NCBI GenBank assembly: GCA_051382335.1
Contig: JBBCAX010000004.1
Span: 1 to 42,658, forward strand
Direction of reading: 5' to 3'
From: Deltaproteobacteria bacterium TL4
GTDB lineage: Bacteria > SAR324 > NAC60-12
DNA length: 42,658 nt
Shown here: positions 6,460 through 34,166 of the stretch, piece after piece
Layout: each line of letters begins with the position of its first letter
How positions within the stretch are numbered: the stretch's first letter is position 1
The notes under the pieces: model-generated
Seen by the model: only the letters and a program-made list of their open reading frames with translations
Databases searched by the model: none
What the model was told of the DNA's origin: nothing
Program-made: the position numbers and the translations under genes

Positions 6460-6469
6460 GTTCCCACCT

Positions 6470-7246
6470 ATGACGCTAGTCACGCTCACTACTGATTTTG
6501 GAACACAAGACGGATATGTCGGGGCAATGAAAGGACGGATTCTTTCCCTTGCTCCAAGCGCCACCATTCTTGACCTGACTCACGAGATTGCTCCCCAAGA
6601 CCTGATTCAAGCGGCTTTTTGTATTAAGCGCAGTCTGACTTACTTTTCCCGGGATACCATTCATGTGATGGTGGTTGATCCCGGTGTCGGATCGCTTAGG
6701 GAAGGGCTTGTTGTACAAACCAAGTGTGGACTGTTAGTCGCTCCTGATAATGGAATTTTAAGTTTATTTTTGGCAGAGACAAGGCCTCAACAAATCCGAA
6801 GAATTCGTAAAGAAACCCTACTTTGGAAAGCTCATAGCAGTTTTGACGGGTTGGCTGTTTTTGCGCCTGTTGCCGCGCACTTAGCTCAGGGAATGTCCCT
6901 GGATCAAATAGGAGACATTGTTGAAGCGATTCAACCCTTGGCGCTTCCGGAACCTGATATTCAAACGAGTCATATCGAAGGGGAGATCCTTCTTTTTGAC
7001 CGTTTTGGAAATGCGATTACCAATATCCCGTCCGCTCAACTCCAAGCTAAAGAATTTTCCGTTCATTGTCAGCGTCATAGCCTTCCTTTTCAGTGTCATT
7101 ATAGTACTGAAAGCGAACAGCCTCATCCTGCAATAGCGATCATGAATAGTGATCATCTGTTAGAATTAGCCGTTTATTGCGGTTCAATAGAGGAGGAATT
7201 TCAACTTAAAAGGGGGATGAAGGTCAGGGTCGAATTTAAGACTTAA
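6470..7246 (+). CDS. SAM hydroxide adenosyltransferase / SAM-dependent halogenase family (DUF62)
   Basis: TLTTDFG, VVDPGVGS, APDNG, DRFGNAITN motifs; start moved to ATG 6470. Confidence 0.9.
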   Translation: MTLVTLTTDFGTQDGYVGAMKGRILSLAPSATILDLTHEIAPQDLIQAAFCIKRSLTYFSRDTIHVMVVDPGVGSLREGLVVQTKCGLLVAPDNGILSLFLAETRPQQIRRIRKETLLWKAHSSFDGLAVFAPVAAHLAQGMSLDQIGDIVEAIQPLALPEPDIQTSHIEGEILLFDRFGNAITNIPSAQLQAKEFSVHCQRHSLPFQCHYSTESEQPHPAIAIMNSDHLLELAVYCGSIEEEFQLKRGMKVRVEFKT

Positions 7247-7309
7247 TAAAGTGAGGTCAAAAAGGCGGGACTAGCCCGCCTATTTCTTAACGTTTCATGT
7301 TAACCATTT
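7220..7309 (+). repeat. Junction direct repeat copy 1 (attL-like)
   Basis: AAGGTCAGGGTCGAATTTAAG...TTAACGTTTCATGTTAACCATTT; DUF62 3' end, terminator and last codons of flgE; one mismatch to 14945-15034. Confidence 0.95.
7259..7288. terminator. Intrinsic, probably bidirectional terminator
   Basis: AAAA-AGGCGGG-actag-CCCGCCT-ATTTCTT. Confidence 0.8.
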
Positions 7310-7496
7310 AAAACACGAACACTTATGGGACTGACCCATCTCTATCTCCAAAAACAGGGACTTGTTTCTATCAGACAACTTTGGATCAAGTGTCACTATC
7401 TCGCGACAGCGCAATGATTTCTACAAACCGCCGTATGCTTCAGCCGCATGTCCGGTGGTGTGGAAGGTGGCGGAGAAAAACCGCTACCTACCCGAT
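7310..7496 (+). mobile_element. 5'-truncated group IIC intron (RT/maturase tail, domains V and VI)
   Basis: Frame MGLTHLYLQKQGLVSIRQLWIKCHYLATAQ* (stop 7415-7417); DV AACCGCCGTATGC...GCATGTCCGGTGGTGTG with CGC triad; DVI ending CTACCCGAT. Confidence 0.85.
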
Positions 7497-7505
7497 TGGG
7501 CGGGT

Positions 7506-8021
7506 TCACTCATACCCACATCCGCAACATAGTGTCTGATCACCACGTGGACACTTTTCCGCAAAACTTCCGAAATCAATCAGATCCACATGGCGTTTCA
7601 AAATCTCCGGAATATTTTGCATCGTGTAATTAGGATAAATGCCCACAATTTTTGAATCCTGATCGGCCACCACGATGATGGAAGTTGCATTGCTTCCATC
7701 CAGGCCTACCTCATCCGATACTTCTTCACGATCATCGCCTGAAAGCCATCCTCCCAGACACTCTACAACTTCTCCATGAGTACCACAGTCATCAAAAACA
7801 CACATTGTCGGCAACCCTTTCTCTACCACATAAATGTAAAACTTTGATCGAGGTACATTTTTATAGGGATATGATGTTGAATCTCCTGGTCTCTCAAGAG
7901 CAGGTTCCCCCAGTTTAAGAGGACCAAACTCCTTGATCTTGCCTCTATCACAGGCTATTAACAGAAGTATTGGAATAACCATAAAGAGAAAAATAAAAAT
8001 GATACGTGGCCTCATGGTCAT
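7506..8021 (-). CDS. Hypothetical lipoprotein, integron cassette gene
   Basis: Hydrophobic N-terminus with lipobox LIAC; stop is followed by a partial R'' GCCCA. Confidence 0.65.
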   Translation of the reverse strand: MTMRPRIIFIFLFMVIPILLLIACDRGKIKEFGPLKLGEPALERPGDSTSYPYKNVPRSKFYIYVVEKGLPTMCVFDDCGTHGEVVECLGGWLSGDDREEVSDEVGLDGSNATSIIVVADQDSKIVGIYPNYTMQNIPEILKRHVDLIDFGSFAEKCPRGDQTLCCGCGYE

Positions 8022-8434
8022 TCCACGACCTGAAGTGTACCAATACTGATTCCATCGCCTTTTCTGGCCTTAATCAAAACACGGTATAATTCATCCCATC
8101 GCTCTCGTTCCAGGATGGTAATACATCCCAGTGAAGCTCTTCCGGTGTGAATGAAAGTCTTCAGATCAACTGGGATCGTGGTTTGCAGACTCCCAACATC
8201 CTTGAAAACCGGATCTCTTTCAATGATGCGAATCTGGACGGGCAAAGAGAACGAAGGTTGGCTGGTGAGAAACTGTCCAATTTCCTGGTTGAGATTAACA
8301 CTTTTCCCTTGGGACAGTTTCTTGTTGATTCCCAGAAAACGGTTGGGAACCTCCATTTCAATCCGTAAGTTCCTGCCAATGGAATCCCCGGAGTATTTCA
8401 AACCGACCCACTTCAGTATGACGATTTTGTTCAT
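8018..8434 (-). CDS. Hypothetical cassette protein with an HxGxxSxGC (L,D-transpeptidase/Tlde1-like) C-terminal motif
   Basis: HTGRASLGCIT; starts just after attC R'; 4-bp overlap with the lipoprotein gene. Confidence 0.5.
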   Translation of the reverse strand: MNKIVILKWVGLKYSGDSIGRNLRIEMEVPNRFLGINKKLSQGKSVNLNQEIGQFLTSQPSFSLPVQIRIIERDPVFKDVGSLQTTIPVDLKTFIHTGRASLGCITILERERWDELYRVLIKARKGDGISIGTLQVVE

Positions 8435-8455
8435 TGTAATCTCTTCGAATAGTAC

Positions 8456-8542
8456 GCCCAACGCTTTGCATCACCGGCGGCAAAAAACAGAACGACAAAT
8501 GATCGGCGCTTTTTGCTGTAAGAATGCATGCGCTTATTAGGC
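8456..8542 (-). mobile_element. Integron attC site (degenerate R'')
   Basis: Minus strand GCCTAAT...TGCAT...GCAAAAA...TTTTTGC...ATGCA...GTTGGGC; 87-bp imperfect palindrome between co-oriented ORFs. Confidence 0.75.
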
Positions 8543-8565
8543 TTTTTCATTTTTTATCAAATTGC

Positions 8566-8880
8566 TTATAGTGCGTTTGCATCTAGTGCCTCTCGTTCTT
8601 TGTCGCATTTCTCCGAGTTTTCAAACTCATACTGAATGTAAACATCACCTTTTTCGTGACCAAGGCCAGTAGCTATCAAGATAATGGCTTTTAAATTATC
8701 TGTTAGCGTGGACTGTTCTTCGGCATCCCAATAAGCACAAAGGTATCTTTCCTCTTTGGTTAAACCAGCCATAAAATCTTCTGGCTCATCCCAGATACTG
8801 CCAGGCAAAAGAAAATCTTGTGTTTTGTGCTTTCCATATTTTTTAGCTAAAGCGTCCTTTCATGAATGAAACTTTTCCAC
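8566..8880 (-). pseudogene. 5'-truncated cassette gene
   Basis: Frame extends upstream as KDALAKKYGKHKTQDFLLPGSIW, then meets a stop and the repeat element at 8881. Confidence 0.5.
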
Positions 8881-8900
8881 CTGTGCAGGTACCTTTTTTT

Positions 8901-9051
8901 GGCTACTGGCCTAAGACGGGACAGCCATCATTTCAGTAGGTTGGGTAGAGCGGTAGCGAAACCCAACATCCAGGCAGTAATGTCCGTTTTTCGTTGGGTT
9001 TCGCTACGCTCTACCCAACCTACGTTTTTGTCCCACTTTAGACCGGTAGCC
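8901..9051. mobile_element. MITE carrying a REP doublet
   Basis: 23-bp imperfect TIR (GGCTACTGGCCTAAGACGGGACA / GGCTACCGGTCTAAAGTGGGACA), 8-bp TSD CTTTTTTT (8893-8900, 9052-9059), inner inverted pair GTTGGGTAGAGCG...CGCTCTACCCAACCTAC. Confidence 0.85.
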
Positions 9052-9057
9052 CTTTTT

Positions 9058-9172
9058 TTAACCACGAAAAACACTAAAAACACGAAATAAAACCTGCAAA
9101 ATAGGGTTTCACGGAGGAATTCATTTATTAAAAAATCATTTATTTCGTGTTTTTCGTGTTTTTCGTGGTTAA
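9058..9172. repeat. AACCACGAAA-type inverted repeat element
   Basis: TTAACCACGAAAAACACTAAAAACACGAAA ... TTTCGTGTTTTTCGTGTTTTTCGTGGTTAA. Confidence 0.8.
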
Positions 9173-10434
9173 TTTTCAAACCACCTGCACAGCTCGAAAT
9201 TTTGAATGGTGGTAAAAACGATTCCGCCACCGGCAACGGAGAGAAGTTTTTTAAGATGGTCTCTGTTTTCCGCCTGTACGGGGTCTTGGCGGAGCAGTTG
9301 TTTGCAGTTGGCAGAGGTATCAAATAGCTGATCGTCCAAGTCATTGCGGTCGGTTATCACAACAATGGTGGGATTATTGAGGGTGATAACCACTTTCCCT
9401 GAGTAAAAAACCATAGAAAGCGATTTTCCCGATCCTTGCGTATGCCAGATTACTCCCGCTTTACGATCTCCTCTTGGCTGACTTTCCACGCTGGGTTGAC
9501 CATAAACCGCAGGATTTTCTTGAACGCATATTGCGGAAATATCCGTAGCGCGAAGCGTGGATTCCACTGCTTTGTTGACGGCAAAGTATTGATGGTACGC
9601 CGCAATTTTTTTTATCGTTGTGACTGTGGTTAATCCGATTTGGTTTGGGCAATCACAAGGAGTTGCCCCTACAGATTTGGATTTTTCAAACACGATGAAC
9701 TGCCGGATGAGATCAAGAAGCACCTCTTTTTTGAGCATCCCTTTGGTGAGGGTCTCAAGCTGAGGAATGGTGGTGCCGTCTTCTTTCACGCCATCGACCG
9801 ATTTCCAGGCAAGAAAGCGTGACCAATCCGATGAGACGGTTCCCGTTTTGGCATCGAGTCCGTCAGAAGCGACGAGAATGCCGTTATAGTAAAACAGGGA
9901 AGGAATGGCTTTTTTATAGTTTTGAAGCTGGGTATAGGCTTTGTGAACGGTGGCGTTTTCATCGGCAGGATTTTTGAGTTCAATCACCACCAGCGGGATA
10001 CCGTTAATGAGAAGCACCACATCCGGACGTTTATTCACATTGTTTTCAATGACCGTGAACTGATTGCAGACGAGAAATTCGTTGTTATCTGGATTTTCAA
10101 AATCAATGAGTTTTACTTCATCGTATTTCACCTCTCCGTTTTTCATGTACTCAATACGAATACCTTCGGTGAGCATCAAGTGAACCGCCTCATTGTTGTC
10201 CATGAGGTTTTGGCTGGGAAGGTTGAGAAATTGACGGATTGCCTGTTCCTGGGCATCGGAGGGGATGGAAGGGTTGAGGGTTTGGACAGCTTCCCGTAAG
10301 CGGTTTTTGAGAATCACTTCGGAGAGGCTTGGTCGTTCAGTTTCCTGATCTTCGGGGGAAAAGTAAGAATACCCCTGTGATTCGAGGAGTTCAACGAGGT
10401 ATTGTTCGATGTCGGATTCGTAAAGAGCGGTCAT
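9169..10434 (-). pseudogene. hsdR: Type I restriction subunit R, C-terminally truncated
   Basis: RPDVVLLINGIPLVVIELK, WHTQGSGKS, TDRNDLDDQL; ends right after FTTIQ, before the DEAH box. Confidence 0.9.
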
Positions 10435-10985
10435 GGGGATTCCTTGACAAATAGAGAGTCCTCTGTCCAGACACGGGGATTGTTCAGGATATATTCCTGT
10501 ATTTGATTTAGGGAGGCTTCATTGCGAATGATATGTTCATAATAATTGCGTTGCCATAATTGATTTCCCGGGGTTTGACGCCATGCATTGATGTGTTTGG
10601 TGGATACCGTTTTGAATGCACCGATCAAACGCCCGAGGGGTTTGCGTTTTTTCGGATGATTTGTAGGGGCGGTTCGCGAACCGCCCCTACCGTCATCGCC
10701 ATTATCACCATCATCTGTCAAAACAATGATTCCGTGAAGATGATTGGGCATCACCACCCAATTGTCCAAATCCACATGGTCATATTGCGATGCCAACCAT
10801 TCCCACGTATCCACGACAATCTGACCTGCCCCATTCAACCGCATTGCCTCATCCACAATTTTTCCAAACAGGCATTCCCTGTTCTGAACACAGATCGTCA
10901 CAAAATACGCTCCGTTTTGCGTATAATCATACCCCTTCAACCGAATCGACCGGCGATGATGTTTTGCGGGATCGTATTTCATCAT
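10431..10985 (-). CDS. REP-associated tyrosine transposase-like (Y1 HUH) protein
   Basis: RRSIRLKGYDY, YFVTIC, VMPNHLHGI, WQRNYYEHIIR, YILNNP. Confidence 0.9.
   Translation of the reverse strand: MMKYDPAKHHRRSIRLKGYDYTQNGAYFVTICVQNRECLFGKIVDEAMRLNGAGQIVVDTWEWLASQYDHVDLDNWVVMPNHLHGIIVLTDDGDNGDDGRGGSRTAPTNHPKKRKPLGRLIGAFKTVSTKHINAWRQTPGNQLWQRNYYEHIIRNEASLNQIQEYILNNPRVWTEDSLFVKESP
10663..10690. repeat. Perfect 28-bp REP-like palindrome inside the transposase gene
   Basis: GTAGGGGCGGTTCGCGAACCGCCCCTAC; half copy at 11028-11042. Confidence 0.9.
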
Positions 10986-12307
10986 AGCTTCCGTTGATGA
11001 ATGTCTGTTATGTCCATGAACGTGTCCGTAGGGGCGGTTCGCTGCACCCTCACCTCCCCCTTCATCAATTTTGGAAGCAAGGTGTCACGGAGGTTTGAGA
11101 GCGTTTGGATTTGCTGAAGATTTGAAAAATTTTTCTCAAAAAGTGGTTGAACAATTTTTTCAAAACCATTTATTAGATTTTGGTTGGGGATTGAGACTAA
11201 TCGCGACTCGAATGTCGATACAGTAATAGCATCAAAAACGGCACCGCTGGCTGAACGCTGAATTTTTTCAATCAGGTTCTTTGTCAAAAGAAAAATAAAT
11301 AAATTTAAAACACCTGTTCCATTAGTGCATAACATGATTGATTCATTGCCATATCACAAGCTGCTAAAGTACATTTTCCAACAGTTCCCCGTGCAGTGAT
11401 AAATACTGTGTTTTTCGGGTACAGATGACTATTACATTTTGATAGTCCCGTTTCAGTAATGCTCTTTTCTGTCTCTAAAACATAAAATGAATCTTTAGCA
11501 TCTTTTGGTGTAAAAAATGGAATATTTCCATTCCAATATTCTTCAATATTCGTTTTTGGGGTTCCTCCACTCAGAATTTCTGCGATGTCTGTAAACTTCC
11601 CAACTCTCCACCCCTCAGGAATCTCCCCAAGTTCACTCTCAATCATTTTTCCGCCGGAGTCCTTATACGGCTCCTCATTCTCGTCAGGAAAATTGAAATC
11701 CACAAACCACCGCTTAAAAAGCGTCTGCGCCAAGGCTTCCAGTGATTTGTTTTGTTCTCGGAGCAGTTCTATTTTGTCATCAAGGGCGGAAAGAACAGAG
11801 GCAATGGCTTTTTGTTCGGGGAGAGGGGGGAGAATTATTGGAAGTTGTTTTAATGATACGATTGTAAATGCTTGCTGTGTTGAACCTATTTTTGCATGAG
11901 TTAGAGTTTCTTTCCCTTGAGGTGAAACTATCCAATAAAAAAGCCACTTTGGGTATATACCTTTATAGTTTCGAAACCATGTTAAATTTCCATCTTTGAA
12001 ATAGAATTTAAAGTTTTTCTCTACTAAATATGGGTTTCCAAGCGTTCCAACCGAAGTTAATAAAATATCGTTTTCTTCTGGTACTCCAAATTTATTCTTG
12101 ATCTCATTATATTTGTTCTCTGAAATAAACAATTCTGTTGAAATAGCACTTCCATTAAATCTTTCTGTTACCTCTTTTCCTCTCAAAATAAGGAATACCT
12201 GAAGATTGGTATTCTCTTGCAAAAATTCGCTTTGAAGAAGTTATTTCACAAACTTCCCCTAAACTTATTTTAAGCCAACCCTCCAACATATTATTTTCTT
12301 CATCCAT
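10982..12307 (-). pseudogene. hsdS: Type I specificity subunit with two frameshifts
   Basis: Three consecutive frames (breaks near 12185 and 11320); PPLPEQKAIA, LGEIPEGW, LRDTLLPKLMKGE. Confidence 0.9.
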
Positions 12308-12308
12308 A

Positions 12309-13349
12309 CTATTTTCCTGTATTATTAAACTCCAATCCCTTGACCACACGGTCAAAATCCGATTCATAGAGTCGATCCTGAATGGGACGATACTTTTCAA
12401 ACTCGCTTTCAGCAAACGTTTTGGCAATTTCTGCGGTGACATGCCCTGCATTTTCTAAAATTTCTTTGGTGTTGAATTGTAAAAACGCATTCAGTTTTGA
12501 AGCCCAGTCGTTCATGGTCATAGGGATACCTTGTTCCGCTTGGTCTTCCGCATAATCGAGGTACATGGTCACAAACCGATTGAGGGACTTTATTTCCTTT
12601 TCACCCAGATAATTTTTTGCGATTGAGACATCAGATTTAATAATTTTTCCAGAAGGTGCTTTTTTCCACGTAGTGAGTCCCATATAATCTTTCGTATGGT
12701 CGGCTCGTTTCATAATAAGTTCTGCGGCGGTGTTTCCATGGATGGCGTAGTGAAGTTTATTTTGTACCATCGCAAAAAAATCTTTGGTGGTTTTTGATTG
12801 GGCGTCATAATCCATCGCCGTCGCATAAATATCTGTAATTTTCTGGTAAAAATTCCGTTCGCTTGCACGAATATCACGAATTTCAAGAATGAGATCATCA
12901 AAATATTGTTTACTTAAATAAGCCCCGTTTTTAAGTCGTTCCGCATCAAGAACATATCCACGAACAGCATAGTTTTTAAGAATTTGGGTTGCCCATCTTC
13001 GAAACTCCGTTGCTCTTTCAGAATTAACGCGATAACCAAGAGAAATAATGGCTTCAAGATTGTAATGATCAATTTCTCGTGAAACATCCCTTTGTCCCTC
13101 TTTTTGAACTATTAGGAATTTCCTAATAGTTGCTTTTTCTGTAAGCTCATTTGACGAAAAAATATTTTTCAAATGTTCATTGATGGTTGGAATTTGAACT
13201 TCAAAGAGCTTTGCTATGAGTTTTTGTGTCAACCATACGTTGTTATCATGGATTCGCACTTCTATGGTATTTTCTCCTGCTTGAGAAGTGAATATGAGAA
13301 ACTCTGTTGTAGAATTTCTTATCGAAAGCTGTTTATCGTCTTTTTTCAT
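12309..13349 (-). CDS. RhuM-family protein
   Basis: VWLTQKLIAKLF, YNLEAIISLGYRVNS, IRDIRASER, IAKNYL. Confidence 0.9.
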   Translation of the reverse strand: MKKDDKQLSIRNSTTEFLIFTSQAGENTIEVRIHDNNVWLTQKLIAKLFEVQIPTINEHLKNIFSSNELTEKATIRKFLIVQKEGQRDVSREIDHYNLEAIISLGYRVNSERATEFRRWATQILKNYAVRGYVLDAERLKNGAYLSKQYFDDLILEIRDIRASERNFYQKITDIYATAMDYDAQSKTTKDFFAMVQNKLHYAIHGNTAAELIMKRADHTKDYMGLTTWKKAPSGKIIKSDVSIAKNYLGEKEIKSLNRFVTMYLDYAEDQAEQGIPMTMNDWASKLNAFLQFNTKEILENAGHVTAEIAKTFAESEFEKYRPIQDRLYESDFDRVVKGLEFNNTGK

Positions 13350-13363
13350 ACAAAATTCCTAAG

Positions 13364-14356
13364 TTATTTCCTTAACAAAAGTAAAACAAGTCCCACCATC
13401 CGGTCTTTGTCTTTCGGGTTGCTTTCGGCGACAAGCAGGGTCAATGCGGTCAGTGCTTCGGGGCTGAGACGGGAAGGATTGAGCAATCCCGCTTGTTTCA
13501 AAAACCACACAAAGGCGAAGGCTCCTGATCGTTTGTTGCCGTCCGTAAACGGATGATTTTTGACCAAGAAATAGAGCAGGTGCGCCGCTTTTTCTTCCAG
13601 CGTCGGATACAGGTCTTCACCTCCAAAGGATTGCAACACATTGCCCACAATCCCTCCCACGCTATCCGGGGAACGTTCGGCTCCAAATAAATCCGTTGCT
13701 TCGCCTTTATCTTTCAATTCCTGTTTCAATTCAGCCAGAGCTTGCGTCAATTCCTGGGCGGTGAACTCCACTTGTTTTTGGGTGGCACCGGTGGTGGGCA
13801 AAGCGGACTTGTCATACGCATCCAGCGAGAACCAGGTGTTGGCAAAAAGGTTGATGAGTTCCAGCACGCTTTGGGTATCCACAGTTCCACCGGTGGGGAG
13901 CAGTTTTTTCACCTCCTCGACCGCCCGCAGAAAGGTATCGTAATTTTGGGCAAGCCGTTCCGGGTTGAGGGTGTAGCCTTCCCAAATATGTTGACGGAGG
14001 GTTTGAGTCGCCCATTGGCGAAATTTTGTGCCTTTTTTTGAGTTGATCCGATATCCGACAGAAATAATGACATCCAGATTGTACATTTTTTGTTTTCTGC
14101 GAACCGTCCGGTTCCCCTCTCTCTGAACTTGTAAGGATTCCTTACAAGTTGCCTGTTCGGAAAGTTCCTCGTCACGATAAATGTTTTTCAGATGCAGGGT
14201 GATATTCTGCGGAGTGGTATCAAAAACATCAGCCATTTGAGCCTGTGTTGCCCAAAGGGTTTCTGCTTTCGTATCAGCCTGAAACTCTATTGCCCCATTT
14301 TTTGCCTGGTAGATGACAATCTCTGTATGTTTTTCCTGTTTCATAATCTCATACAT
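13364..14356 (-). CDS. RhuM N-terminal domain + Fic/Doc domain protein
   Basis: YNLDVIISVGYRINS and Fic motif HPFTDGNKRSG. Confidence 0.9.
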   Translation of the reverse strand: MYEIMKQEKHTEIVIYQAKNGAIEFQADTKAETLWATQAQMADVFDTTPQNITLHLKNIYRDEELSEQATCKESLQVQREGNRTVRRKQKMYNLDVIISVGYRINSKKGTKFRQWATQTLRQHIWEGYTLNPERLAQNYDTFLRAVEEVKKLLPTGGTVDTQSVLELINLFANTWFSLDAYDKSALPTTGATQKQVEFTAQELTQALAELKQELKDKGEATDLFGAERSPDSVGGIVGNVLQSFGGEDLYPTLEEKAAHLLYFLVKNHPFTDGNKRSGAFAFVWFLKQAGLLNPSRLSPEALTALTLLVAESNPKDKDRMVGLVLLLLRK

Positions 14357-14466
14357 TACAAAGTAATTCCGATATTCCCCAACTGCTTCTCAATCTCCGC
14401 ATTGAGGCTCATTTCTTGAGTCATCTGCTCTCTCAATTTACCCGTCAATTCCGCAATTTTATCCTC
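14356..14466 (-). pseudogene. hsdM: HsdM C-terminal remnant
   Basis: Manual translation EDKIAELTGKLREQMTQEMSLNAEIEKQLGNIGITL*; the stop overlaps the next ATG (TAATG). Confidence 0.7.
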
Positions 14467-14825
14467 ATGATTTGGCACCTTTCAAAAACGATAAATTCTT
14501 GAGTTTAAAAAAAGATCTTTGACAATTTAAACCTATGGCGCACTTTTTGTTTCAGGCCGCTTCTGGCAAAGAAATATCATACACTTCGTCCAGCGCTACT
14601 AATTCCTTGGTTGCTTTTTGAGGATGTTTGATATGAGCCTTCGTCAATTTGATCCATTTTTGTACAAAATTCTCATCATTTTGGATTTTATCAATGAAGG
14701 CCTTCATATTATCTGCTTCGGCTTGTCGGACAATGGAAGGAATCGATAGAGATTCCTTTTGTGACCCCTCAGTAGTGCCTTTGTAATTTTCATAATGGAG
14801 GAGGAAGTCAATCCAGGAAATGAGG
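14465..14825 (-). pseudogene. Probable IS 3' remnant (transposase tail and right end)
   Basis: Startless frame LISWIDFLLHY...DISLPEAA* (stop 14552-14554), then a spacer ending GGTGCCAAATCATGAG at the hsdM breakpoint. Confidence 0.4.
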
Positions 14826-14930
14826 TATAGTGCTCAAGATAAGTTTTGTCCTGGGAGCGAGGGCGTCCCGCCCTCCGGTGAGGGCAAGATGCCCTCGCTC
14901 CCAGGGAAAAAACTTTCCTGGACAGCTATA
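14826..14930. mobile_element. MITE family A copy 1
   Basis: TATAG ends, core CTGGGAGCGAGGGC...GCCCTCGCTCCCAG; homologous to 29709 and 33996. Confidence 0.85.
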
Positions 14931-15213
14931 TGCAATTACACCCAAAGGTCAGGGTCGAATTTAAGAATTAATAAAGTGAGGTCAAAAAGGCGGGACTAGC
15001 CCGCCTATTTCTTAACGTTTCATGTTAACCATTTCTTGAACCATTTCATCAGAAGCGGTTACCGTTTTAGCATTCGCCTGGAAGGCTCGTTGAGTTTCAA
15101 TCATCTTCACAAACTCTCTCGCCAAATCCACGTTAGACTGTTCCAAAGTCTGTCCACGAATGGTTCCCAGACTGCCTTTTCCTGGCTCACCCAAGACTTC
15201 TCTGCCGGCATTA
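14928..15213 (+). repeat. Junction direct repeat copy 2 (286 bp)
   Basis: Matches 23982-24267 with 10 mismatches by manual count; includes terminator hairpin 14988-15006. Confidence 0.95.
15012..15213 (-). pseudogene. flgE: Duplicated flgE 3' fragment
   Basis: 66 residues identical to the FlgE C-terminus; five nucleotide differences, all synonymous. Confidence 0.9.
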
Positions 15214-15320
15214 TAGACGTTCATAAAATTAGTGACACAGTGACACAGTAGAAGAGGCGTCTCGCCTCTTTCAAGGAGCGGGACGCTCCTTCTACTGTGA
15301 ATTTATTAAAATAAACGTCT
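15214..15320. mobile_element. MITE family B with GTAG REP doublet
   Basis: Ends TAGACGTTCAT / ATAAACGTCT; core CACAGTAGAAG...CTTCTACTGTG at 15244-15299. Confidence 0.75.
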
Positions 15321-15451
15321 TAACCCATAATTGCGTCACTCCTGCTGTACTGGGCGCGGGAGCGCCAATTTAGGCATTCCCTCGCAGGAGCGTGAGAACG
15401 AGAAGTTTTCATAGTTATTCTTTTGCCGTTCCTTACCAACTCCTAATGATC

Positions 15452-18400
15452 TTAAAGATGTGCCCCTTTTCCCCGATTGCACTCCCGACAAACTGCACGC
15501 AGGTTGCGAGGCTCTGTTTTGCCCCATTTTGATATAGGAATGATGTGATCGATTTCCAAAACGACTTTGTCCGTCACAGAGCTTTTTCCACACACCACAC
15601 AGCGAGACTGATCACGTTTCAAAATGTGATAGCGCAGTTTCTGCGTTAGTTTCTGACGTTCGTTGTTAACCCATTCGGAAGGGGGTTTAATTTGACGAAT
15701 ATAAGCAGGATGCTCTTCATTGATCGCTTCAGTTTCATTTTGAGTCAGGGTTCCATCCACCAGACAGTCCATAAAATCTTCCGATTGAATAGAATCACAT
15801 CCATTCAACATATCCTGTGCCAGTTTACGTTTGTTATCCAGAAGACGAGTCAGTATGGATTCAAATGTTACTATGTCTTTGGAAACTACGGTTGGAGTAT
15901 AAACATAAACCTGTTTAGTTTGACCAATGCGATAGGCTCGATCTGTCGCCTGATCTTCTTTGGCAGGATTCCATGGACGCGTGAAATGAATCACATGATT
16001 GGCAGCTTGAATATTGACACCAAAACCCATTGCTGAAGTTCCAAGAATCAGCACTCCAAAGTTAGCCTTGTCCTGGAACCGGTCAATCAGAATTTGTCTG
16101 GAACGTCCTTTGGATGAAGTGGGAGTTTCTCCATTGATAATGACAGGAGAAAACCCGAATTTTTCCTGAATTGCTTTCTGAATCACACGTTGCAACTCCT
16201 TGTAGTCCGTAAATATAATGACTTTTTCTGCTTTGGATTCAATCCGTTTTAGTTGTTGGAGCATCCAGTTTAGTTTGGGGGAATGTTTCAATATCTCATC
16301 AAGTTTCAGATTTGCCCCCTCTTCAATCGGGTGAGCGCAAATCATTCTCAACCGATGGATAAAGCCCAACAATTGATTCCCCGCATTTTTATCATTTTTC
16401 TTGAGATCCTCTATTTTCTGATGATATTCCTGCCTCACTTGCTGGTACATTTGTTGTTGTTTTACGGAGAGGGACAGCTCAAGACCTGCTGGGTCTGGAT
16501 TGTCTATTTTGGGTGGTAAATCTTTGGCGACCTCCGTTTTCATGCGCCTCATAATTTGGGGTTCAATCAACGCTCGCAATTCTTCGAGTTTGTTTTTTTG
16601 TTCCTCTGTTTGGGATTCAATAGGACGAGTATAGCGGGAGCCGAATTCATTCAACTCTCCCAGAAAACAGGGCTGAATGAAATCGAACAGACACCATAAA
16701 TCAGTGAGCGAGTTTTCCACAGGAGTTCCCGTACAGGCAATCTTGAAGCGTGCGTTTTGTTTTTTTACGCCTTGAGTGACGAGCGCCCCAGGGGTTTTAA
16801 CTTTTTGAGCTTCATCGCAAACCATGATACTCCAAGTGACCGCCGCTAAGGAAAATTCATGATCTCTGAGCGTTTCATAAGTAGTCAACACAATATCAGC
16901 GTTTTGCTGCCAATTGGGTTTCAAAAATTTGGTCAACCCCTTTTCTAACAGGGTTTCCTCAATCTGGCTTTTTGGCAATTTCAATGCGGACAGAGAATCG
17001 CCATATAGCTTTAGAACACGGGCAAAAGCTGGGACGAAAAAACGTTTCATTTCATTTTCCCAGTTATCCAGCAATGCAACGGGAGCGACTATCAGGACAG
17101 GATCACGCTGAGGTTCTTTTTCAAAAAAATGGGCAATGAACGTCAACATTTGCAGGGTTTTTCCGAGTCCCATGTCATCAGCGAGAAGGCATCCACGTAC
17201 TTGGTCGGGGGATTTACTCCACAAGTGTTGCAACCAGGCCACTCCCACTTTTTGATGATCCTTCAACTGAACTCCAGGTTGTAATGAGGAAGGCAACTGC
17301 GGAGGTGTGTCTTTATCAAATTTTAGCATTTGAACACGTTTTTCCTCATATTCCCGTTCCTCAATATTCTGTTTGATCTGCAAAACTAACCGTTCCTTGG
17401 GCAGTATCTTTACAGATTCCTTCTCGGATATTGTTTTCGCCTCTTCGCTTTGCTTTACTAAAAGAACATCCCTGATTTGAGATCGAAGTTTAATGGCCTC
17501 CGGCACGGAAAGCGGTTGTGGTAAGTTGGGAAAGACAATTTGAGTCTCTCCCTTTTGCTGTGCATCCGTAATGCGCTGTTCCAGAGCTTCAATATCCTTG
17601 TCAGAACATTGCAGATAAATTGTCTCTTTTCCCTCAGCTTGCCAGGGAATGACCACCGGAACCTCAGTCGGAATCCAGTCTTTTTCACCCGATGTTTTTG
17701 AAATAAATGGAGAATAAATTGTTTGACGTTTGCCGATGCCTTCCACACGTTCTGAATAATTGGAAAGGTCAAATACGGTCTCTTGACGAATTTCTGTGTG
17801 AAGAGTCTCCTGAAACGCATTTTCTGGTGAGTTGATTGGCTGCGTTTCAACTGGAACAGTGTTCCAACACTCAAGCGTTGCCTTCAGTTGCGATAGTTGT
17901 AATTCTGAATTGTTGTCCAGTTCGAGTTCATAACCTTCCCAGAAACAGCACAGCATGTTTTTGGCTAACTTGGATTCCAGTTCATCGACAAACTGCCTTA
18001 GGCGTTTCGGAGAATCGAGGAAAAACTTTTCAGAAGGCGTGGTCTCGGAAGAAATGGATTCTATTCGAATATCCACTCCAAGCATGGCTTCATTTTCATG
18101 ACAAACTTGGTGTTGAAAGCGATAAAATTCAAGCTGGGCGGCCTGACGATCCGCCTCAAAGACTTCAGGCGGAATGACTTGTATGGCGTCTTCACCCAGC
18201 AAGGCATAAGGATTGCGGACGAAAGCTTGCGCCCGGAGTCCCGAAACTCTGCGAGCGGGCATCCGCTTGATTTCAGAAAGCACTGTTTTGACGGCTGGAG
18301 CGATCACTACATGAATGATCCCGCTTGAGGGAGTTGTAATGGAGTAACGATCTTGAACACCATTGTATTGATCGAAGGTTTGCAGCCAGTTTGCTGGCGC

Positions 18401-19126
18401 TTCTTCAAATGTAGGCTGGACTTCCACTACCTGCGTGTTTGCGACAAAGACAGGGTTCATTTTCAGGTGGAGGCTTTCAGGCGTGAGAATAATCGTTTTT
18501 TCCAAGAAATCATCAAGCCTTGCTCCTGCTGAGAGTGCCAATTTTCGGATGTGTCCCCATTCTTGTTGATGACGTGCCTGTGTTTTCTCAGCAGGAAGCA
18601 ACTCTGCCAATTTTTTAACAGCTTTCACCAACCGCCAGGCCGATCCTGACAACAGGAATGTGTCAGAGGGGTTGGAGGAATTCTCGAAAATGGCTCCTGT
18701 GAGCCTTACTCCTCGAATCTCTTGACCAGACGCATTGCGCCAGCCTACGAGATTGATTTGAAAATCAGCATCGCTCAAGCCGCTCCAACTCGACAGGCAT
18801 GGTACATAACCACAGATTTTCGACAATTTCAGCAATCCGACACTGCTTTGGTGCGTTTCATCGTCCAGGATGCGATACACATGCTCCCACGTAATCAAGA
18901 GCCGAGACCCCTGGAATTCTGCCAGTTCTTCCTCTTCCAATTGCGCCAGATAGCGCACAGTTTCCTGATCTTCCTTCTGAAACAGCGCTGGTTCTGTAAA
19001 CCACCATTCCGTTGATGTTGGCGATTGCTCCTCTGGAAAAAATTCGAGTCCTGCCTGAGTAAAAGAACGCTGTAAAGATGAAAATTTAGAAGATTTTATG
19101 AAGGAGAACATAGTCATTGTTTCCAA
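15452..19126 (-). CDS. zorD: Zorya ZorD: SNF2 helicase with C-terminal HNH nuclease
   Basis: LADDMGLGKT, DEAQ, TGTPVEN, QATDRAYRIGQ; tail CVVC...DHIIP...N...CRECN; last gene after zorABC; start may be 19117. Confidence 0.85.
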   Translation of the reverse strand: METMTMFSFIKSSKFSSLQRSFTQAGLEFFPEEQSPTSTEWWFTEPALFQKEDQETVRYLAQLEEEELAEFQGSRLLITWEHVYRILDDETHQSSVGLLKLSKICGYVPCLSSWSGLSDADFQINLVGWRNASGQEIRGVRLTGAIFENSSNPSDTFLLSGSAWRLVKAVKKLAELLPAEKTQARHQQEWGHIRKLALSAGARLDDFLEKTIILTPESLHLKMNPVFVANTQVVEVQPTFEEAPANWLQTFDQYNGVQDRYSITTPSSGIIHVVIAPAVKTVLSEIKRMPARRVSGLRAQAFVRNPYALLGEDAIQVIPPEVFEADRQAAQLEFYRFQHQVCHENEAMLGVDIRIESISSETTPSEKFFLDSPKRLRQFVDELESKLAKNMLCCFWEGYELELDNNSELQLSQLKATLECWNTVPVETQPINSPENAFQETLHTEIRQETVFDLSNYSERVEGIGKRQTIYSPFISKTSGEKDWIPTEVPVVIPWQAEGKETIYLQCSDKDIEALEQRITDAQQKGETQIVFPNLPQPLSVPEAIKLRSQIRDVLLVKQSEEAKTISEKESVKILPKERLVLQIKQNIEEREYEEKRVQMLKFDKDTPPQLPSSLQPGVQLKDHQKVGVAWLQHLWSKSPDQVRGCLLADDMGLGKTLQMLTFIAHFFEKEPQRDPVLIVAPVALLDNWENEMKRFFVPAFARVLKLYGDSLSALKLPKSQIEETLLEKGLTKFLKPNWQQNADIVLTTYETLRDHEFSLAAVTWSIMVCDEAQKVKTPGALVTQGVKKQNARFKIACTGTPVENSLTDLWCLFDFIQPCFLGELNEFGSRYTRPIESQTEEQKNKLEELRALIEPQIMRRMKTEVAKDLPPKIDNPDPAGLELSLSVKQQQMYQQVRQEYHQKIEDLKKNDKNAGNQLLGFIHRLRMICAHPIEEGANLKLDEILKHSPKLNWMLQQLKRIESKAEKVIIFTDYKELQRVIQKAIQEKFGFSPVIINGETPTSSKGRSRQILIDRFQDKANFGVLILGTSAMGFGVNIQAANHVIHFTRPWNPAKEDQATDRAYRIGQTKQVYVYTPTVVSKDIVTFESILTRLLDNKRKLAQDMLNGCDSIQSEDFMDCLVDGTLTQNETEAINEEHPAYIRQIKPPSEWVNNERQKLTQKLRYHILKRDQSRCVVCGKSSVTDKVVLEIDHIIPISKWGKTEPRNLRAVCRECNRGKGAHL

Positions 19127-20742
19127 TATCCTTTGGTAACATAAAGCTTAAACCCCCATTGCTCTAACTGTTTGCCAAACCGGGATATTACAGATTTCCT
19201 ATCAGATTCATCCTCGTGAGGGGTTCCGTTTAATTTGTGATAGTATCTCACCCAAAGAGCACCTCCTTTAGGTCTTAAGTCTTCAACTTCATAAGGAAAT
19301 ACATACTGTTTTATTTCCTCAATAGAAGGGGGTTTATTGGGTGGGTTGGTAGGAAAATGAGATTGATACTGATCTGGATCAATTCCTAATTTTGCCAATT
19401 CTGATTTAAAACCATATTCCCATTGGTGGCCACTATGATTTCCCCAAAAGACACTTTCATTTTTATGCTTTAGTGTATAAATGGTGAATCGTTCCGATGG
19501 AACATGAGAATGCAGATGTCCATCGATTGGATAGCCGTAACAGGCATTGCCAGTTTCACTGAATTCAACAAAATAATATTCACCTATCCTCATGATAAAG
19601 GCATTGGTTGACGATGGGGCATCCTTCAAGTAACTCAACCGATTGTTTTTTTTTCGTTTGTTACGAAATTCAACATAGTCTGGATCACTGGAATACCTGG
19701 CGTCATTTCCCAAAACGATTTGGGTATAGGTAATTTGCTTAAGATACTGTTTCCAGAACTCATAACGTCTGGAATCTCCTACTCTATCCGATTGCAGAAT
19801 GTTAAAAAACTCTTCTAGGTCTTCCAGTGCCAGCCATTGACTGACCATGTTCTTCACATTATGTTCAACCAATCCCCATTTTGCCTGGCGGATAAGCTGA
19901 GGGCTTCCCCAACATTCAATGGCAAAATCCCTCAATCCTTCATGTCTCATGAGATCAGAACATTGGTGATAACGGATAAGAATCAATTTCAAACCTTTAT
20001 CATGATAGAGGGGATGCGTTTTCAACTGTTCCAGCATTTGATTCAGATAGTTTTTGAACCCACTATCGGGCAATTCAGTAACTTGTTTGATTTGCGAAAG
20101 AATGATTTCTCCCCAGAACCAGCTTCCTTCGTGAATTAACTCCCGTAATGAGTCCAACTGAGTCGTATTTCCATCTAACAATGCTTTTGCGTAAGATGGG
20201 CAAGGATTGTCAAAAAACAATTGAGGATGTTGAGAAAGTAATTCCATCCAAGGCAATGTTTTTTTGGGGAGGTTTTTAATAATCTTGAAAGTAAGTGCTA
20301 GAAATTTCTGCAAGGTCTGCCAGTTAGTATAAGCAGAAGCATTTTCAGCATCTGGTTTGCGTTGAAAATAGTTATGTAAGAGGCCACGCCACCAACCTGT
20401 GCTGATGAGTTGGTTTTGTTTCAACAGTTCGTTAATATCCTTAAAAAACTGAAGTAAACAGGAATCATCCAGGAACTGGGAGTTATCCTTAAGCTTTGTG
20501 GTTAAATTCCAGCATAAAACCCGTAATTGTCGTGTAGATTTCAAACCTTGAGATTGGTAAGTACGGATGGCTATCGCCAGTTGATCTTGTGAAATCTTGG
20601 GGACGGAGACTTGATTGAATTTTCGTTTCAAGTCTTCCCCTGTTTTTTGTAGTTTAAGAGGCGGAGCTATATTTATTTTATTTCTAAAGCTGGAGTTCTG
20701 TTGATCGAGTTCATTTTTCAGCATTTCAATGGGTGAAGTCAT
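19114..20742 (-). CDS. zorC: Zorya ZorC (EH-signature domain)
   Basis: RYEFWKQY and FVEFSETGNACYGY motifs; position between zorB and zorD; start 20742 or 20775. Confidence 0.85.
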   Translation of the reverse strand: MTSPIEMLKNELDQQNSSFRNKINIAPPLKLQKTGEDLKRKFNQVSVPKISQDQLAIAIRTYQSQGLKSTRQLRVLCWNLTTKLKDNSQFLDDSCLLQFFKDINELLKQNQLISTGWWRGLLHNYFQRKPDAENASAYTNWQTLQKFLALTFKIIKNLPKKTLPWMELLSQHPQLFFDNPCPSYAKALLDGNTTQLDSLRELIHEGSWFWGEIILSQIKQVTELPDSGFKNYLNQMLEQLKTHPLYHDKGLKLILIRYHQCSDLMRHEGLRDFAIECWGSPQLIRQAKWGLVEHNVKNMVSQWLALEDLEEFFNILQSDRVGDSRRYEFWKQYLKQITYTQIVLGNDARYSSDPDYVEFRNKRKKNNRLSYLKDAPSSTNAFIMRIGEYYFVEFSETGNACYGYPIDGHLHSHVPSERFTIYTLKHKNESVFWGNHSGHQWEYGFKSELAKLGIDPDQYQSHFPTNPPNKPPSIEEIKQYVFPYEVEDLRPKGGALWVRYYHKLNGTPHEDESDRKSVISRFGKQLEQWGFKLYVTKGYWKQ

Positions 20743-21493
20743 GAGCTTGTTGAAGTTGGCAGTTTCCGAGTTCATTGTTCAAAGAAGGAATATCCTGGCG
20801 AGTTTCGTCCAATCCATAGAACTCCAATCTTAATTCAACACGTCTGCTTTCTGCGGGTTTTGCCTTGGCCGAATTGAAAGAGAATCCTCCCACCAGAAAT
20901 AATTTTTGAATTTCTTCTTTTTGGAAATCATTCAATGGAATTTCCTGAGGCATTGGCGGACGAAAAAGGGAGCAAAGCACTTGCTGGGCACGTTGCAGAC
21001 TGAGATTCAAATTGAGCAAGTAAGCCCCACGCCTATCAGTAAATCCCTCCACTACAATTCGTTTCAACCATTTTTGACCTGTATCGGTATTGGCGATTTT
21101 CAGGATTTCCGGTACAAAACTACGTAACGCTATTTCAGCGTTTTGAGACAGATTGTATTTTCCAAAATCAAACAAAGCCTGGGTTCCAAAATCAATACGG
21201 TTATTCACGCAATCGACTGTAATAGTTCCAAAATTAGGAGAGGTTTTGGCCACCTGATTGATCTCCTCACACAAGTTATTGATTTCCTGTATCCGCCCTT
21301 CAAATCTGGCTATGCGCTCTTTTTCAACCTGATTTTTTTCATCAATTTTCTGGTTAACCACAATCAATGACACACTCATCACAACTAGAAAAAGCATCAT
21401 GAGAGCCGTCATTAAATCCGCATACGAAATCCAGAATGGTTTTTCCCCTTCGTCTTTGCTTTTTTTCCTATTTACATTCCGGCTGCCAAACAT
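20726..21493 (-). CDS. zorB: Zorya ZorB (MotB-like TM + OmpA-like domain)
   Basis: EKPFWISYADLMTALMMLFL with the conserved Asp; VEGFTD, LSLQRA, SRRVELRL. Confidence 0.9.
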   Translation of the reverse strand: MFGSRNVNRKKSKDEGEKPFWISYADLMTALMMLFLVVMSVSLIVVNQKIDEKNQVEKERIARFEGRIQEINNLCEEINQVAKTSPNFGTITVDCVNNRIDFGTQALFDFGKYNLSQNAEIALRSFVPEILKIANTDTGQKWLKRIVVEGFTDRRGAYLLNLNLSLQRAQQVLCSLFRPPMPQEIPLNDFQKEEIQKLFLVGGFSFNSAKAKPAESRRVELRLEFYGLDETRQDIPSLNNELGNCQLQQAHDFTH

Positions 21494-21497
21494 GATA

Positions 21498-21640
21498 TAG
21501 ACTTTCATTTAAATAAATTCATATTTTTTTATATCTTTCGCATGCTGAGCGGAGTCGAAGCACTGTCATTCCAGGGATTGTCACAACCCCTTCAACTTCA
21601 CTCAGGGTGCGGCTTTTGAAACTATTTAAATGAACGTCTA
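21498..21640. mobile_element. MITE family B between zorA and zorB
   Basis: 18-bp TIR TAGAC(T/G)TTCATTTAAATA with 1 mismatch, TA at both ends; core GCTGAGCGGAGTCGAAG / CTTCAACTTCACTCAG. Confidence 0.85.
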
Positions 21641-21646
21641 GAGTTC

Positions 21647-23758
21647 CTAATGTTTGAGTTTGTTGCCAATACCTGAAATATCATCAGCAACACCACTCAG
21701 TTCATCAATAGCCGTACTCAACATTTGGACAGCGTTGCTGAGGGAACTATCAAATTCTGCTTTTGATTTGCTCAAACTTTTCTCAACGGAGTCACCAAAG
21801 CTGTTAAAACTTGTAGTTAATACTTTTGAAATCTGGTTGAGATAGTCGTTGGTTTGTTGCTGAACTTCAGAAAGTTTGCTGGAAACCTTTTGCATATCGC
21901 TGACGATTTGATGATTCATCCCAGCCTCATTTTTAGCATTTTCAATCAACTCTTTCAGAACAGCCACCATTTGAGTGATCGTGCTTCGAGCCTGGGTGTA
22001 GTCCTGCAAGATATTTTGGAGGGTTCTAGCGGATTGCTCCATTGTCATTCCAGTCGCGTTTAGTTTTCCGTAAACTTCATTAGCGGTAGTCATTACCCCC
22101 TGAACACTTTCACCGGCCTGCTGGAACTCACTGGCTGCAATAAAGAGATTTTCCGCTCCCTGATTCATTCTCGAAACAGCATCTACAGTAACTTGAGTAA
22201 TGGATTGAGTATTTTCCTTGATGGCCACGATTATTTCTGAATTTTGCTGGATCAAACCTTTCAGTCCATCTTGCAGACTACTCACCACTTGCTGGTTGGT
22301 TTCATGGGTTTGAGCCTGGTGCTCTTTTTCGTCATCCAACACAGATTTTCTCTGTTGGGTAAAATCACTCATGATTCCGCCCATTTGTTCAGATAAATGG
22401 GTAATGGACATACTCAATTGTTCTGTCATGGCAGACTGTGATTGATTTGCTGTACTGCGTATTTGGGTAACCCATTCCTGCATTTGGCTTCCCATTTGCT
22501 TCTGCTGGTTTTCAATGTTTTCCATCATTTCTCTGAATCGGGTTCCGATTGCGGATGTATTCCCATCACTGACTTTACCCATTGCTTCAACCAGTTGCAT
22601 CATTTGTTGATTCATCTGATTTTGACGAACTTCCGACTGGCTCATGACCTGAAGTAATTGGTTGCCCATGGTATTAGTGTTGTCGGAACCTGCACTTTTC
22701 AAGTCTGTAATGAGGTGTTGAAATCCCTGCTGCATATTCTGCATCGCATGAACGGACTCGGTCATCATGGTATTCAGTCCCTTCATTGATCCGCCAAAAG
22801 TATCTTCAAGTTTGGCAGTAAATGCTGCTAAAATATTTTCCAACACCCCATGAACTGCGTGGCTCTGGTCTTGTCTGACGCCATCCACCGCACTTGCAAT
22901 TTGTCCCAAAGGTAACATGCTGGTATGAATTGATTCCTGAATTTGATTGGCAATTTTATGAGAACTTTCTTGATAATAGATCTGACTGGCCTGAATCTGA
23001 CGTTCCGTCAAATTGGTGAGCAATTGTTTCAGCTCACCAACCAGACTATCCTTGAGTTGGGTGGTTTGGGTGGCGTTTTGTTCAGAGGAATAGACTAACT
23101 GGGATAAATACTCTTCACCTACTCCAGAGTCGTACAAGGCATCAATGGCTTGCACCAGATCGCCTACAGCTCTGTAACAACCAGCCAATAATATTTTTTC
23201 AAAAAGAGTGATCAGCATCGCCACAAAAATGGCAATTCCTGATGCAACAAAAGCTACTCGTACACCATTGAGTAATGCCTGAAGACTTGCTCTTACTGCC
23301 TCTGGTTCGCCTCCCGGTTGAAAACCATTAAGTCCCTCAATCAATCCCCAAAAAGTACCGATGATCCCGATCCCCGTCAAAATTCCAGGTAAGTGTCTAA
23401 AGAATTCGGTGTGAAGTGGAATATCAACTAATACTTGAGTATTGAAAAAATTCTCGGCACTAACGGTTGAGCGAATGCGTCCATCTTTTTGAGTGTGCAG
23501 GGTTTCCTTATACTCTGACCAAAGATGTTTTAAGGTGCGATTTTTTCCTATATCCTCATTCAATACTCCATGATCAAGCTCTGCCCGCTTTTTCTTATCT
23601 CTAATCAATTGGATAACAGGCCGAAAACGAAAAAACCAAAACCAGAAAGCAGGGAAGACATAAAAGGCAACAAAGCATACGAAAGCAAACCCCACGAGGC
23701 TCATTACCGTAGCTGGTACAAGGTTTTGCCAAGCATCTAACAATAACGACTTAATCAT
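21647..23758 (-). CDS. zorA: Zorya ZorA (MotA-like TMs + long helical tail)
   Basis: HLPGILTGIGIIGTFWGLIEGL, three hydrophobic segments, long Q/M/S-rich helical tail. Confidence 0.9.
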   Translation of the reverse strand: MIKSLLLDAWQNLVPATVMSLVGFAFVCFVAFYVFPAFWFWFFRFRPVIQLIRDKKKRAELDHGVLNEDIGKNRTLKHLWSEYKETLHTQKDGRIRSTVSAENFFNTQVLVDIPLHTEFFRHLPGILTGIGIIGTFWGLIEGLNGFQPGGEPEAVRASLQALLNGVRVAFVASGIAIFVAMLITLFEKILLAGCYRAVGDLVQAIDALYDSGVGEEYLSQLVYSSEQNATQTTQLKDSLVGELKQLLTNLTERQIQASQIYYQESSHKIANQIQESIHTSMLPLGQIASAVDGVRQDQSHAVHGVLENILAAFTAKLEDTFGGSMKGLNTMMTESVHAMQNMQQGFQHLITDLKSAGSDNTNTMGNQLLQVMSQSEVRQNQMNQQMMQLVEAMGKVSDGNTSAIGTRFREMMENIENQQKQMGSQMQEWVTQIRSTANQSQSAMTEQLSMSITHLSEQMGGIMSDFTQQRKSVLDDEKEHQAQTHETNQQVVSSLQDGLKGLIQQNSEIIVAIKENTQSITQVTVDAVSRMNQGAENLFIAASEFQQAGESVQGVMTTANEVYGKLNATGMTMEQSARTLQNILQDYTQARSTITQMVAVLKELIENAKNEAGMNHQIVSDMQKVSSKLSEVQQQTNDYLNQISKVLTTSFNSFGDSVEKSLSKSKAEFDSSLSNAVQMLSTAIDELSGVADDISGIGNKLKH

Positions 23759-23981
23759 TAAGTTTCTTCATGGATGAGTGAATCATGCTACGTCCCCCCT
23801 ATTCAGGACCACCCCAATCCCACCTATCCAGAACCACCTGATTTTTGAATATGATTCTGGCAAAGGATAGTGATAAAAATGAATAATTTATGACAGATTT
23901 GTCGATTTTTGATATGAAAAATTACCTCTAAACCTTATACTTAGAAGGGTTAACAAAAATCCTGTGAAACCTTTCACCTAA

Positions 23982-24267
23982 ATATGCAATTACACCCAAA
24001 GGTCAGGGTCGAATTTAAAAATTAAGAGCGTGAGGTCAAAAAGGCGGGACGAGCCCGCCTATTTCTTAACGTTTCATGTTAACCATTTCTTGAACCATTT
24101 CATCAGAAGCGGTTACCGTTTTAGCATTCGCCTGGAAGGCCCGTTGCGTTTCAATCATCTTCACAAACTCTCTCGCCAAATCGACGTTAGACTGTTCCAA
24201 AGTCTGTCCACGAATGGTTCCCAGACTGCCTTTTCCTGGTTCACCCAAAACTTCTCTGCCGGCATTA
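23982..24267 (+). repeat. Junction direct repeat copy 3 (attR-like)
   Basis: ATATGCAATTACACCCAAAGGTCAGGGTCG... continuing into intact flgE. Confidence 0.95.
24038..24067 (-). terminator. flgE terminator
   Basis: AGGCGGG/CCCGCCT stem followed by a T run on the minus strand, just after the flgE stop. Confidence 0.8.
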
Positions 24268-29708: not shown

Positions 29709-29812
29709 TATAGATGTCCAGAAAAGTTTTGTCCTGGGAGCGAGGGCGTCCCGCCCTCCGGTGAGGGCAAGAGGCCCTCGCTCCCAGCACAAAATACTTT
29801 TCTGAAACACTA
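29709..29812. mobile_element. MITE family A copy 2
   Basis: Core nearly identical to 14826-14930; TA ends. Confidence 0.85.
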
Positions 29813-34099: not shown

Positions 34100-34166
34100 C
34101 TTTATAGCCTTTCATATTGAGAAACACGCCTTGCATGTCAAATTTTTTATCCCGAGTTTGGGCCTT

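Follow-up and report, generated by a model that had tools for sequence, protein, structure and literature searches.

We describe a 42,658-nucleotide stretch of DNA from Deltaproteobacteria bacterium TL4 (SAR324), which is the whole of contig C4 (JBBCAX010000004.1) in a 6.6-Mb, 445-contig genome (G000) and is referred to below as the window. Within it, an intact gene for a DUF62 / S-adenosylmethionine (SAM) hydroxide adenosyltransferase (6470..7246, plus strand; PF01887 E 8e-51, PF20257 E 4e-15) and an intact flagellar hook gene, flgE (24066..25556, minus strand), converge across 16.8 kb, in which three direct copies of their junction delimit two intervals of 7.6 and 8.8 kb. These 16.8 kb are inserted DNA, because the DUF62/flgE junction is empty in five of the nine relatives that carry DUF62. 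The latter gene is present in 9 of 36 genomes of the family. In five of them (G003, G007, G008, G009 and G016, representing four other genera, with none of the same genus among the genomes compared) it converges with flgE and only about 50-95 bp of empty sequence separate the two, while in the remaining four it is located elsewhere. Deletion in silico from copy 1 to copy 3 leaves DUF62 with its end intact and 40 bp away from the stop codon of flgE, restoring the clean convergent gene pair foreseen in an earlier note on this DNA. The same note proposed an attachment (att)-like hotspot, which is supported only insofar as foreign defence cargo occupies a protein-coding, non-tRNA junction that is empty in relatives; a tRNA scan found no tRNA genes in the window. 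The GC content of the two islands (0.427 and 0.425, against 0.434) is not distinctive.

Three repeat copies and the genes between them

The repeated unit is a 90-bp core found on the plus strand at 7220-7309, 14945-15034 and 23999-24088, and it consists of the last nine DUF62 codons (in copy 1, those of the intact gene), a 40-bp gap with a terminator hairpin (24042-24060) and the 3' end of flgE. Copies 2 and 3 are 99% and 93% identical to copy 1 over the core and extend to 286 bp at 97% identity, each comprising the same 17-bp arm, the core and flgE sequence, namely 202 bases of the 3' end in copy 2 (14928-15213) and the live 3' end in copy 3 (23982-24267). All three announced copies of DUF62 end, terminator and flgE end are therefore in place, except that copy 1 retains only 23 flgE bases, and the duplications measure 90 and 286 bp. 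When the three copy regions were compared by BLAST with all 445 contigs, the core matched contig C4 only. Copy 1 departs from copies 2 and 3 at one sharp junction, beyond which the latter share the 17-bp arm up to a miniature inverted-repeat transposable element (MITE-A), and therefore both intervals share one ancestral end. An origin of the arm as a diverged DUF62 allele was rejected, as it breaks the conserved L..G..V spacing (judged by eye).

Interval 2 features a complete Zorya type I operon on the minus strand (15452..23758), in which zorA (703 aa), zorB (260 aa), zorC (553 aa) and zorD (1224 aa) lie together as open frames with PADLOC best hits ZorA1, ZorB1, ZorC1 and ZorD1, each at E 1e-98 or better. 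Among 88 genomes of the class, ZorB has a match in G009 only, at another locus, and in that genome the stretch G009:C26:17274-21903 (L049) carries zorA-zorB-zorC homologues with zorD not adjacent; a ZorB search of genome contigs returned 12 distant OmpA-type loci. The region upstream of zorA (23760-23981) is broken 28 bp before the start by an insertion sequence (IS)-like end, and an 83-bp remnant of a repeated terminus, probably an IS end, lies just upstream of the gene (23786..23868, plus strand). A perfect 6-bp palindrome at about 23965-23979 resembles a CRP-type site.

Interval 1 holds no working type I restriction-modification (R-M) island, as hsdM, hsdS and hsdR are all broken. Only the 5' part of hsdR remains (9169..10434, minus strand; PF04313; PADLOC REase_I positions 5-380 of 1029), ending at 421 aa, against about 1030 in the model, at a 335-bp multicopy element (8869..9203) that links it to a group of cassette-like open reading frames (ORFs). 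Next to it, hsdS is found by PADLOC in three pieces with two frame breaks (10982..12310, minus strand), and the last 41 codons at 14356..14481 (minus strand), which have no NCBIfam hit, presumably belong to hsdM. Between the hsdR and hsdS remnants lies an ORF resembling a repetitive extragenic palindrome (REP)-associated tyrosine transposase (RAYT), of the HUH family and not an integrase (10431..10985, minus strand; PF01797; NF047646 at 68.6 bits, under the cut-off of 80). RhuM (PDC-S05) and RhuM-Fic (PDC-S23), identified by Pfam and PADLOC, appear intact at 12309..14356 (minus strand). The distinct defence cargo claimed for each interval thus survives in the open RhuM and RhuM-Fic frames and the intact Zorya operon, but not in the type I R-M system; as also claimed, the cargo genes lie on the minus strand in the ORF map.

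On the side of copy 1, interval 1 carries the 3' remnant of a group II intron (7328..7497, plus strand), comprising the end of a reverse transcriptase frame and domains V-VI. Against RF00029 it scores 31.4 bits (E 9e-4), short of the gathering score of 40, and, counting itself, it matches 20 places in the genome over 100 bp or more. It is followed by the cassette-like ORFs (171 aa, 147 aa and a cut third one; 7506..8868, minus strand), for which no Pfam, NCBIfam or PADLOC family was found. A hairpin at about 8455-8541, which we take to be attC-like from its end motifs, folds no better than shuffled sequences. Similar cassette-like stretches with group II intron remnants occur, besides 7328-8868, on more than 15 other contigs.

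Repeat edges, transposon remnants and recombinases

Four repeat edges border inserted DNA, and three of these are transposon scars, one formed by an IS end and two by MITEs. The right edge of copy 1 is a 4-base microhomology join to the last 22 bases (7306..7327, plus strand) of a multicopy IS with terminal inverted repeats, both ends of which were seen; the 22-base end has 19 genome matches with a common inner flank, and the IS is presumably IS4-like. The left edge of copy 2 is the TA end of MITE-A (14826..14930; 27 near-full copies at 90% identity or more), whose flanks are of different origin, with copy 2 to the right and, on the far side, the interior of a transposase gene. The latter belongs to the body of a second IS (14484..14825, minus strand), present as one end and a 3' transposase piece that is cut at MITE-A and is 47-54% identical to a 372-aa ORF on contig C441. 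The right edge of copy 2 is the TA end of MITE-B, which together with an REP-like unit occupies 15212..15435 and has another left flank elsewhere in the genome. Only the left edge of copy 3 borders no recognised repeat, the IS-like 83-bp end being 113 bp away. Both intervals are patchworks of transposon remnants, and the three scarred edges are deletion or recombination joins; original repeat lengths and any integrase have therefore been lost. Transposition of copy 2 as a composite between two MITEs was rejected, since the outer flanks do not form a single target site. MITE families with TA ends and REP-like cores are found in the window at 14826-14930, 29709-29812, 33996-34100 and 15212-15322, and across the genome as hundreds of partial copies.

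The earlier note recognised no tyrosine or serine recombinase in the window, and indeed a profile search for these families gave no hit among its 33 ORFs, while 12 recombinases from this genome, used as tblastn queries, reached E values of 0.008 at best in the window and 0.13 in the interval, revealing no remnant. This absence may reflect erosion, because most repeat edges arose later through IS and MITE deletions. The note's suggestion that the repeats are att sites belonging to a pair of related elements, possibly moved in trans, is not supported in that form. An integrase next to the same core, for which it had proposed a search, was not found: no recombinase lies beside the core anywhere in the genome, and at the limited depth of the search no integrase-bearing element was found at the same site in this genome or at the DUF62 loci of 35 relatives (up to 1.5 kb per side). 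Genome-wide, tyrosine recombinases account for 12 matches, two of them integron integrases, and two serine-recombinase domains for 4 and 5 matches, any of which might in principle serve an active family of integrase-less elements, excised and inserted at the core by a recombinase encoded elsewhere. Such a family is improbable in our view, for the arm-plus-core combination is confined to one contig, the left ends of both intervals are destroyed, neither interval retains two intact att sites of matching length, and the other low-copy repeat pairs in the genome have no defensible edge motif in common. The two integron integrases (L002 and L004; TIGR02249 above cut-off) are located on contigs other than C4. 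A dif/Xer site seems unlikely, as the GC-skew turn near 7 kb tracks gene direction and the junction is unlike dif consensus sequences.

Site-specific tandem accretion followed by decay stays a live rival to a recombinase-free account because the left edge common to copies 2 and 3 is sharp and carries an inverted repeat matching at 8 of 10 positions. Two related integrative elements would have entered in succession, at the DUF62 tail or else within flgE, in the latter case carrying a replacement flgE end, and each would have lost its integrase by IS/MITE deletions, as modelled for cis-mobilizable elements (CIMEs). The inverted repeat (8/10, with an 8-bp spacer) spans the arm/core edge of copy 3 at 23988-24015, the edge of identity falls one base into the spacer, as a tyrosine-recombinase crossover would leave it, and the deletion scars are found next to both arms, where an integrase would sit. 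An inverted repeat of this quality was equalled at 0.9% of 50,000 random genome positions, although it had been noticed before the test. On the host side, however, only one half of the inverted repeat fits (4/10 at best), the window holds no integrase remnant by tblastn, and an element targeting DUF62 would have to carry at least 200 dead flgE bases without a single amino-acid change. Nor was the core met in a related context in the virus and phage records searched: a 21-base core pattern gave two chance matches in metagenomes and a 17-base pattern three in viral sequences, all unrelated outside the pattern, and searches of phages and viral contigs with the DUF62 and flgE C-termini returned nothing useful. 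Accretion of this type is a possible reading that we hold tentatively, close behind the recombination between strains that we consider next.

Allele differences and the proposed stacking of strain versions

Over their 286 bp, copies 2 and 3 show 10 base differences, none of which alters an amino acid: five lie in flgE (5/5 synonymous; about 0.11 synonymous changes per site of the flgE piece), one is synonymous in the DUF62 tail and four are non-coding, including one in the hairpin loop. Within the 90-bp core a single base separates copy 1 from copy 2, whereas copy 3 differs at 5-6. Under simple decay of one dead copy the 5/5 synonymous outcome has a model-dependent P of 0.0005-0.015. Since the differences are synonymous only, and improbable under decay, the flgE piece of copy 2 was probably functional until recently and derived from a lineage other than that of copy 3, and the two copies look like working alleles from two strains.

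Alleles of different strains would also appear side by side in an assembly chimera of two haplotypes of one locus, and a fragmented, 445-contig assembly invites the question. An assembly k of 127 is indicated by 122 overlaps of 127 bp between contig ends. Exact matches between the 335-bp element (8869-9203) and other places reach 201 bp and exceed k, such that this join needs repeat resolution; the link between the cassettes of copy 1 and hsdR is consequently the weak point of the assembly. Within 6400-24600 no other sequence has exact repeats of at least 127 bp, and the Zorya half is therefore well joined. The three copies and both MITE joins likewise lack exact repeats as long as 127 bp (the longest being 108 bp, and 89 bp between copies 2 and 3) and should therefore each be covered by single k-mers. 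No second flgE or DUF62 haplotype is found in the bin, and a chimera is the least probable of the explanations considered.

The reading we prefer, with about even confidence, is that host recombination stacked two strain versions on one old insertion junction, and that transposon erosion came later; this is likely a known route for defence-gene build-up rather than a new mobile element. A single old insertion in the last codons of DUF62 would first have created the arm/core junction, and strains carrying it would then have diverged and acquired different cargo. Incoming DNA from one strain could have recombined with the resident version through homology on one side and a repeat or microhomology on the other, or alternatively entered as a circle by a single crossover, with both versions left in tandem. 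MITEs and IS would subsequently have landed in the redundant flgE copies and R-M genes, and deletions between them would have shrunk the array to its present size. RecA acting between copies 2 and 3 could lose or amplify Zorya, a dedicated integrase being unnecessary; loss of Zorya by this route would be expected under every reading considered here, and at 90 and 286 bp the repeats are, as proposed earlier, long enough for loss by homologous recombination. Stacking by the host is favoured by the synonymous-only differences, by three edges that are transposon joins whose flanks do not match, by the lack of any recombinase trace in the window and by a second locus of the genome, between mltA and dnaA on contig C237 (see below), which is built alike, with no recombinase match. 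The genome also encodes ComEC and DprA, and R-M insertion with long target duplication and transformation merodiploids (both below) offer precedents.

Several points weigh against this preferred reading. It requires two rare joining events and leaves the origin of the first junction unexplained, while the inverted repeat and the crossover-like edge of identity at copy 3 are features that a tyrosine recombinase would explain. The ComEC and DprA genes are common, occurring in 10 and 11 of 14 control genomes, and are no proof of competence. The synonymous pattern is not repeated in the parallel cases, with one synonymous and eight changed codons at the C237 locus and four of each in the related genome G054. 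Finally, an element that carries a replacement gene tail also yields synonymous-only differences, as described for prophage e14 in icd (PMC13626634), a case which shows that site-specific accretion can produce them as well. The genome-wide synonymous comparison covered 30 repeat pairs hand-picked from 606, many of them paralogues.

An integrase-free shuttle for defence systems seems unlikely to us. A resident MITE or IS beside the cargo would act on a TA site of the host gene next to it, releasing a circle that RecA would insert into the junction of another strain. The circle would presumably consist of the cargo plus about 0.3 kb of host flank and enter by a single crossover after transfer, giving tandem stacking in which each system has its own terminator; we give these details no more credence than the shuttle itself. 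Equally doubtful is its corollary that insertions in this phylum would land repeatedly at the DUF62 tail, as in this genome and G054. Many defence islands lack a mobility gene, and this locus keeps an unusually readable record in the allele-level differences of its repeats and the transposon ends at its edges. Circles joined at MITE-B, or crossovers within the 286-bp repeat, if true, would make it a natural case of integrase-free stacking; at present it is a single eroded example in one assembly.

Parallel loci and known systems

A scan for same-contig repeats gave 606 pairs, of which 30 were hand-picked and 7 viewed closely. On contig C237 (G000:C237:10264-31150; L112 and L113), 95-123 bp of the mltA 3' end are duplicated, in diverged form, around a 20.7-kb block immediately before dnaA, which carries type III-B cmr genes and other cargo; at its edges, an intron remnant cuts one copy of the mltA tail and a repeat lies near the other. 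The contig has no recombinase match, and no inverted repeat was found at the edge. A motif common to this edge and the one described here was rejected, as the C237 'arm' is diverged mltA and the flanks match at background level (P 0.18).

Among relatives, a DUF62 tail duplication was seen at 1 of the 35 DUF62 loci scanned (up to 1.5 kb a side), in G054 of the same order (L022, G054:C593), where a 122-bp repeat of the DUF62 end (88.5% identity) encloses a HEPN/nucleotidyltransferase pair, while its congener G055 has an empty DUF62-hemB junction. This case favours site-specific accretion, but its duplication edge lies about 75 bases further into DUF62 and hence at a different site. A limited literature search gave no paper on DUF62 as an insertion site and none on defence systems of SAR324.

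Comparison with known systems suggests several partial precedents (see also 10.64898/2026.01.13.699239). In its workings the locus is like R-M insertion with long target duplication, described by Furuta, Abe and Kobayashi (2010, PMC2853133), which shares with it type I R-M genes (present here as hsdR and hsdS pieces and a probable hsdM end), an insert below 20 kb, the absence of an integrase, and direct repeats above 30 bp that span a stop codon while the host gene stays intact. It differs in that here there are three tandem copies, Zorya as a second cargo and broken R-M genes, and in that copy 3 is a diverged allele rather than a fresh target copy. That system is further defined by the absence of other mobile elements, whereas here IS ends, MITEs, an intron remnant and an RAYT-like ORF are present, maybe as later arrivals. 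In appearance the locus is closer to a decayed tandem of CIMEs. These (PMC5704250) form integrase-less tandem blocks at a gene 3' end with a hybrid site copy between them, and the present intervals likewise hold no integration or transfer genes; unlike in CIMEs, no helper element or integrase is known here, the left ends are destroyed, and the repeats measure 90-286 bp as opposed to 8-60 bp of identity. The locus is filed under neither class, because other mobile elements speak against the former and no cognate integrase was found for the latter.

In the e14 prophage in icd, with its icdC pseudogene (PMC13626634), a long gene 3' end is likewise duplicated with mainly synonymous differences; e14, however, is a prophage with its own excision system, while the present locus lacks phage genes and its duplicate covers the ends of two convergent genes. 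Transformation merodiploids of Streptococcus pneumoniae (PMC3784515) are also tandem, joined at incomplete transposon copies and formed by host recombination, but those are laboratory duplications of 100-900 kb, whereas here short remnants are found and transformation is only a candidate route. Single crossovers are described as giving duplications of 109-950 bp (PMC3240628). Core defence hotspots of Pseudomonas aeruginosa and additive flexible islands (PMC10250203, PMC5217437) resemble this locus in having defence genes between conserved flanks, often without a mobility gene and with transposases at the edges; unlike this locus, known from one genome, they are located beside tRNA or tmRNA genes and were established by comparing many strains.

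Directly upstream of DUF62, a 449-aa ORF (5110-6459) matches no Pfam or NCBIfam family. In G083 (L082, G083:C57), a PIN-type toxin-antitoxin-like pair lies directly behind DUF62 and is absent in the congener G082; it was rejected as a further tail duplication, as no target duplication is present. Small islets without a recombinase, flanked by 35-56-bp imperfect direct repeats that show no common motif, also occur on contigs C220, C359, C397 and C78 of the genome, several of them with toxin-antitoxin-like ORFs.

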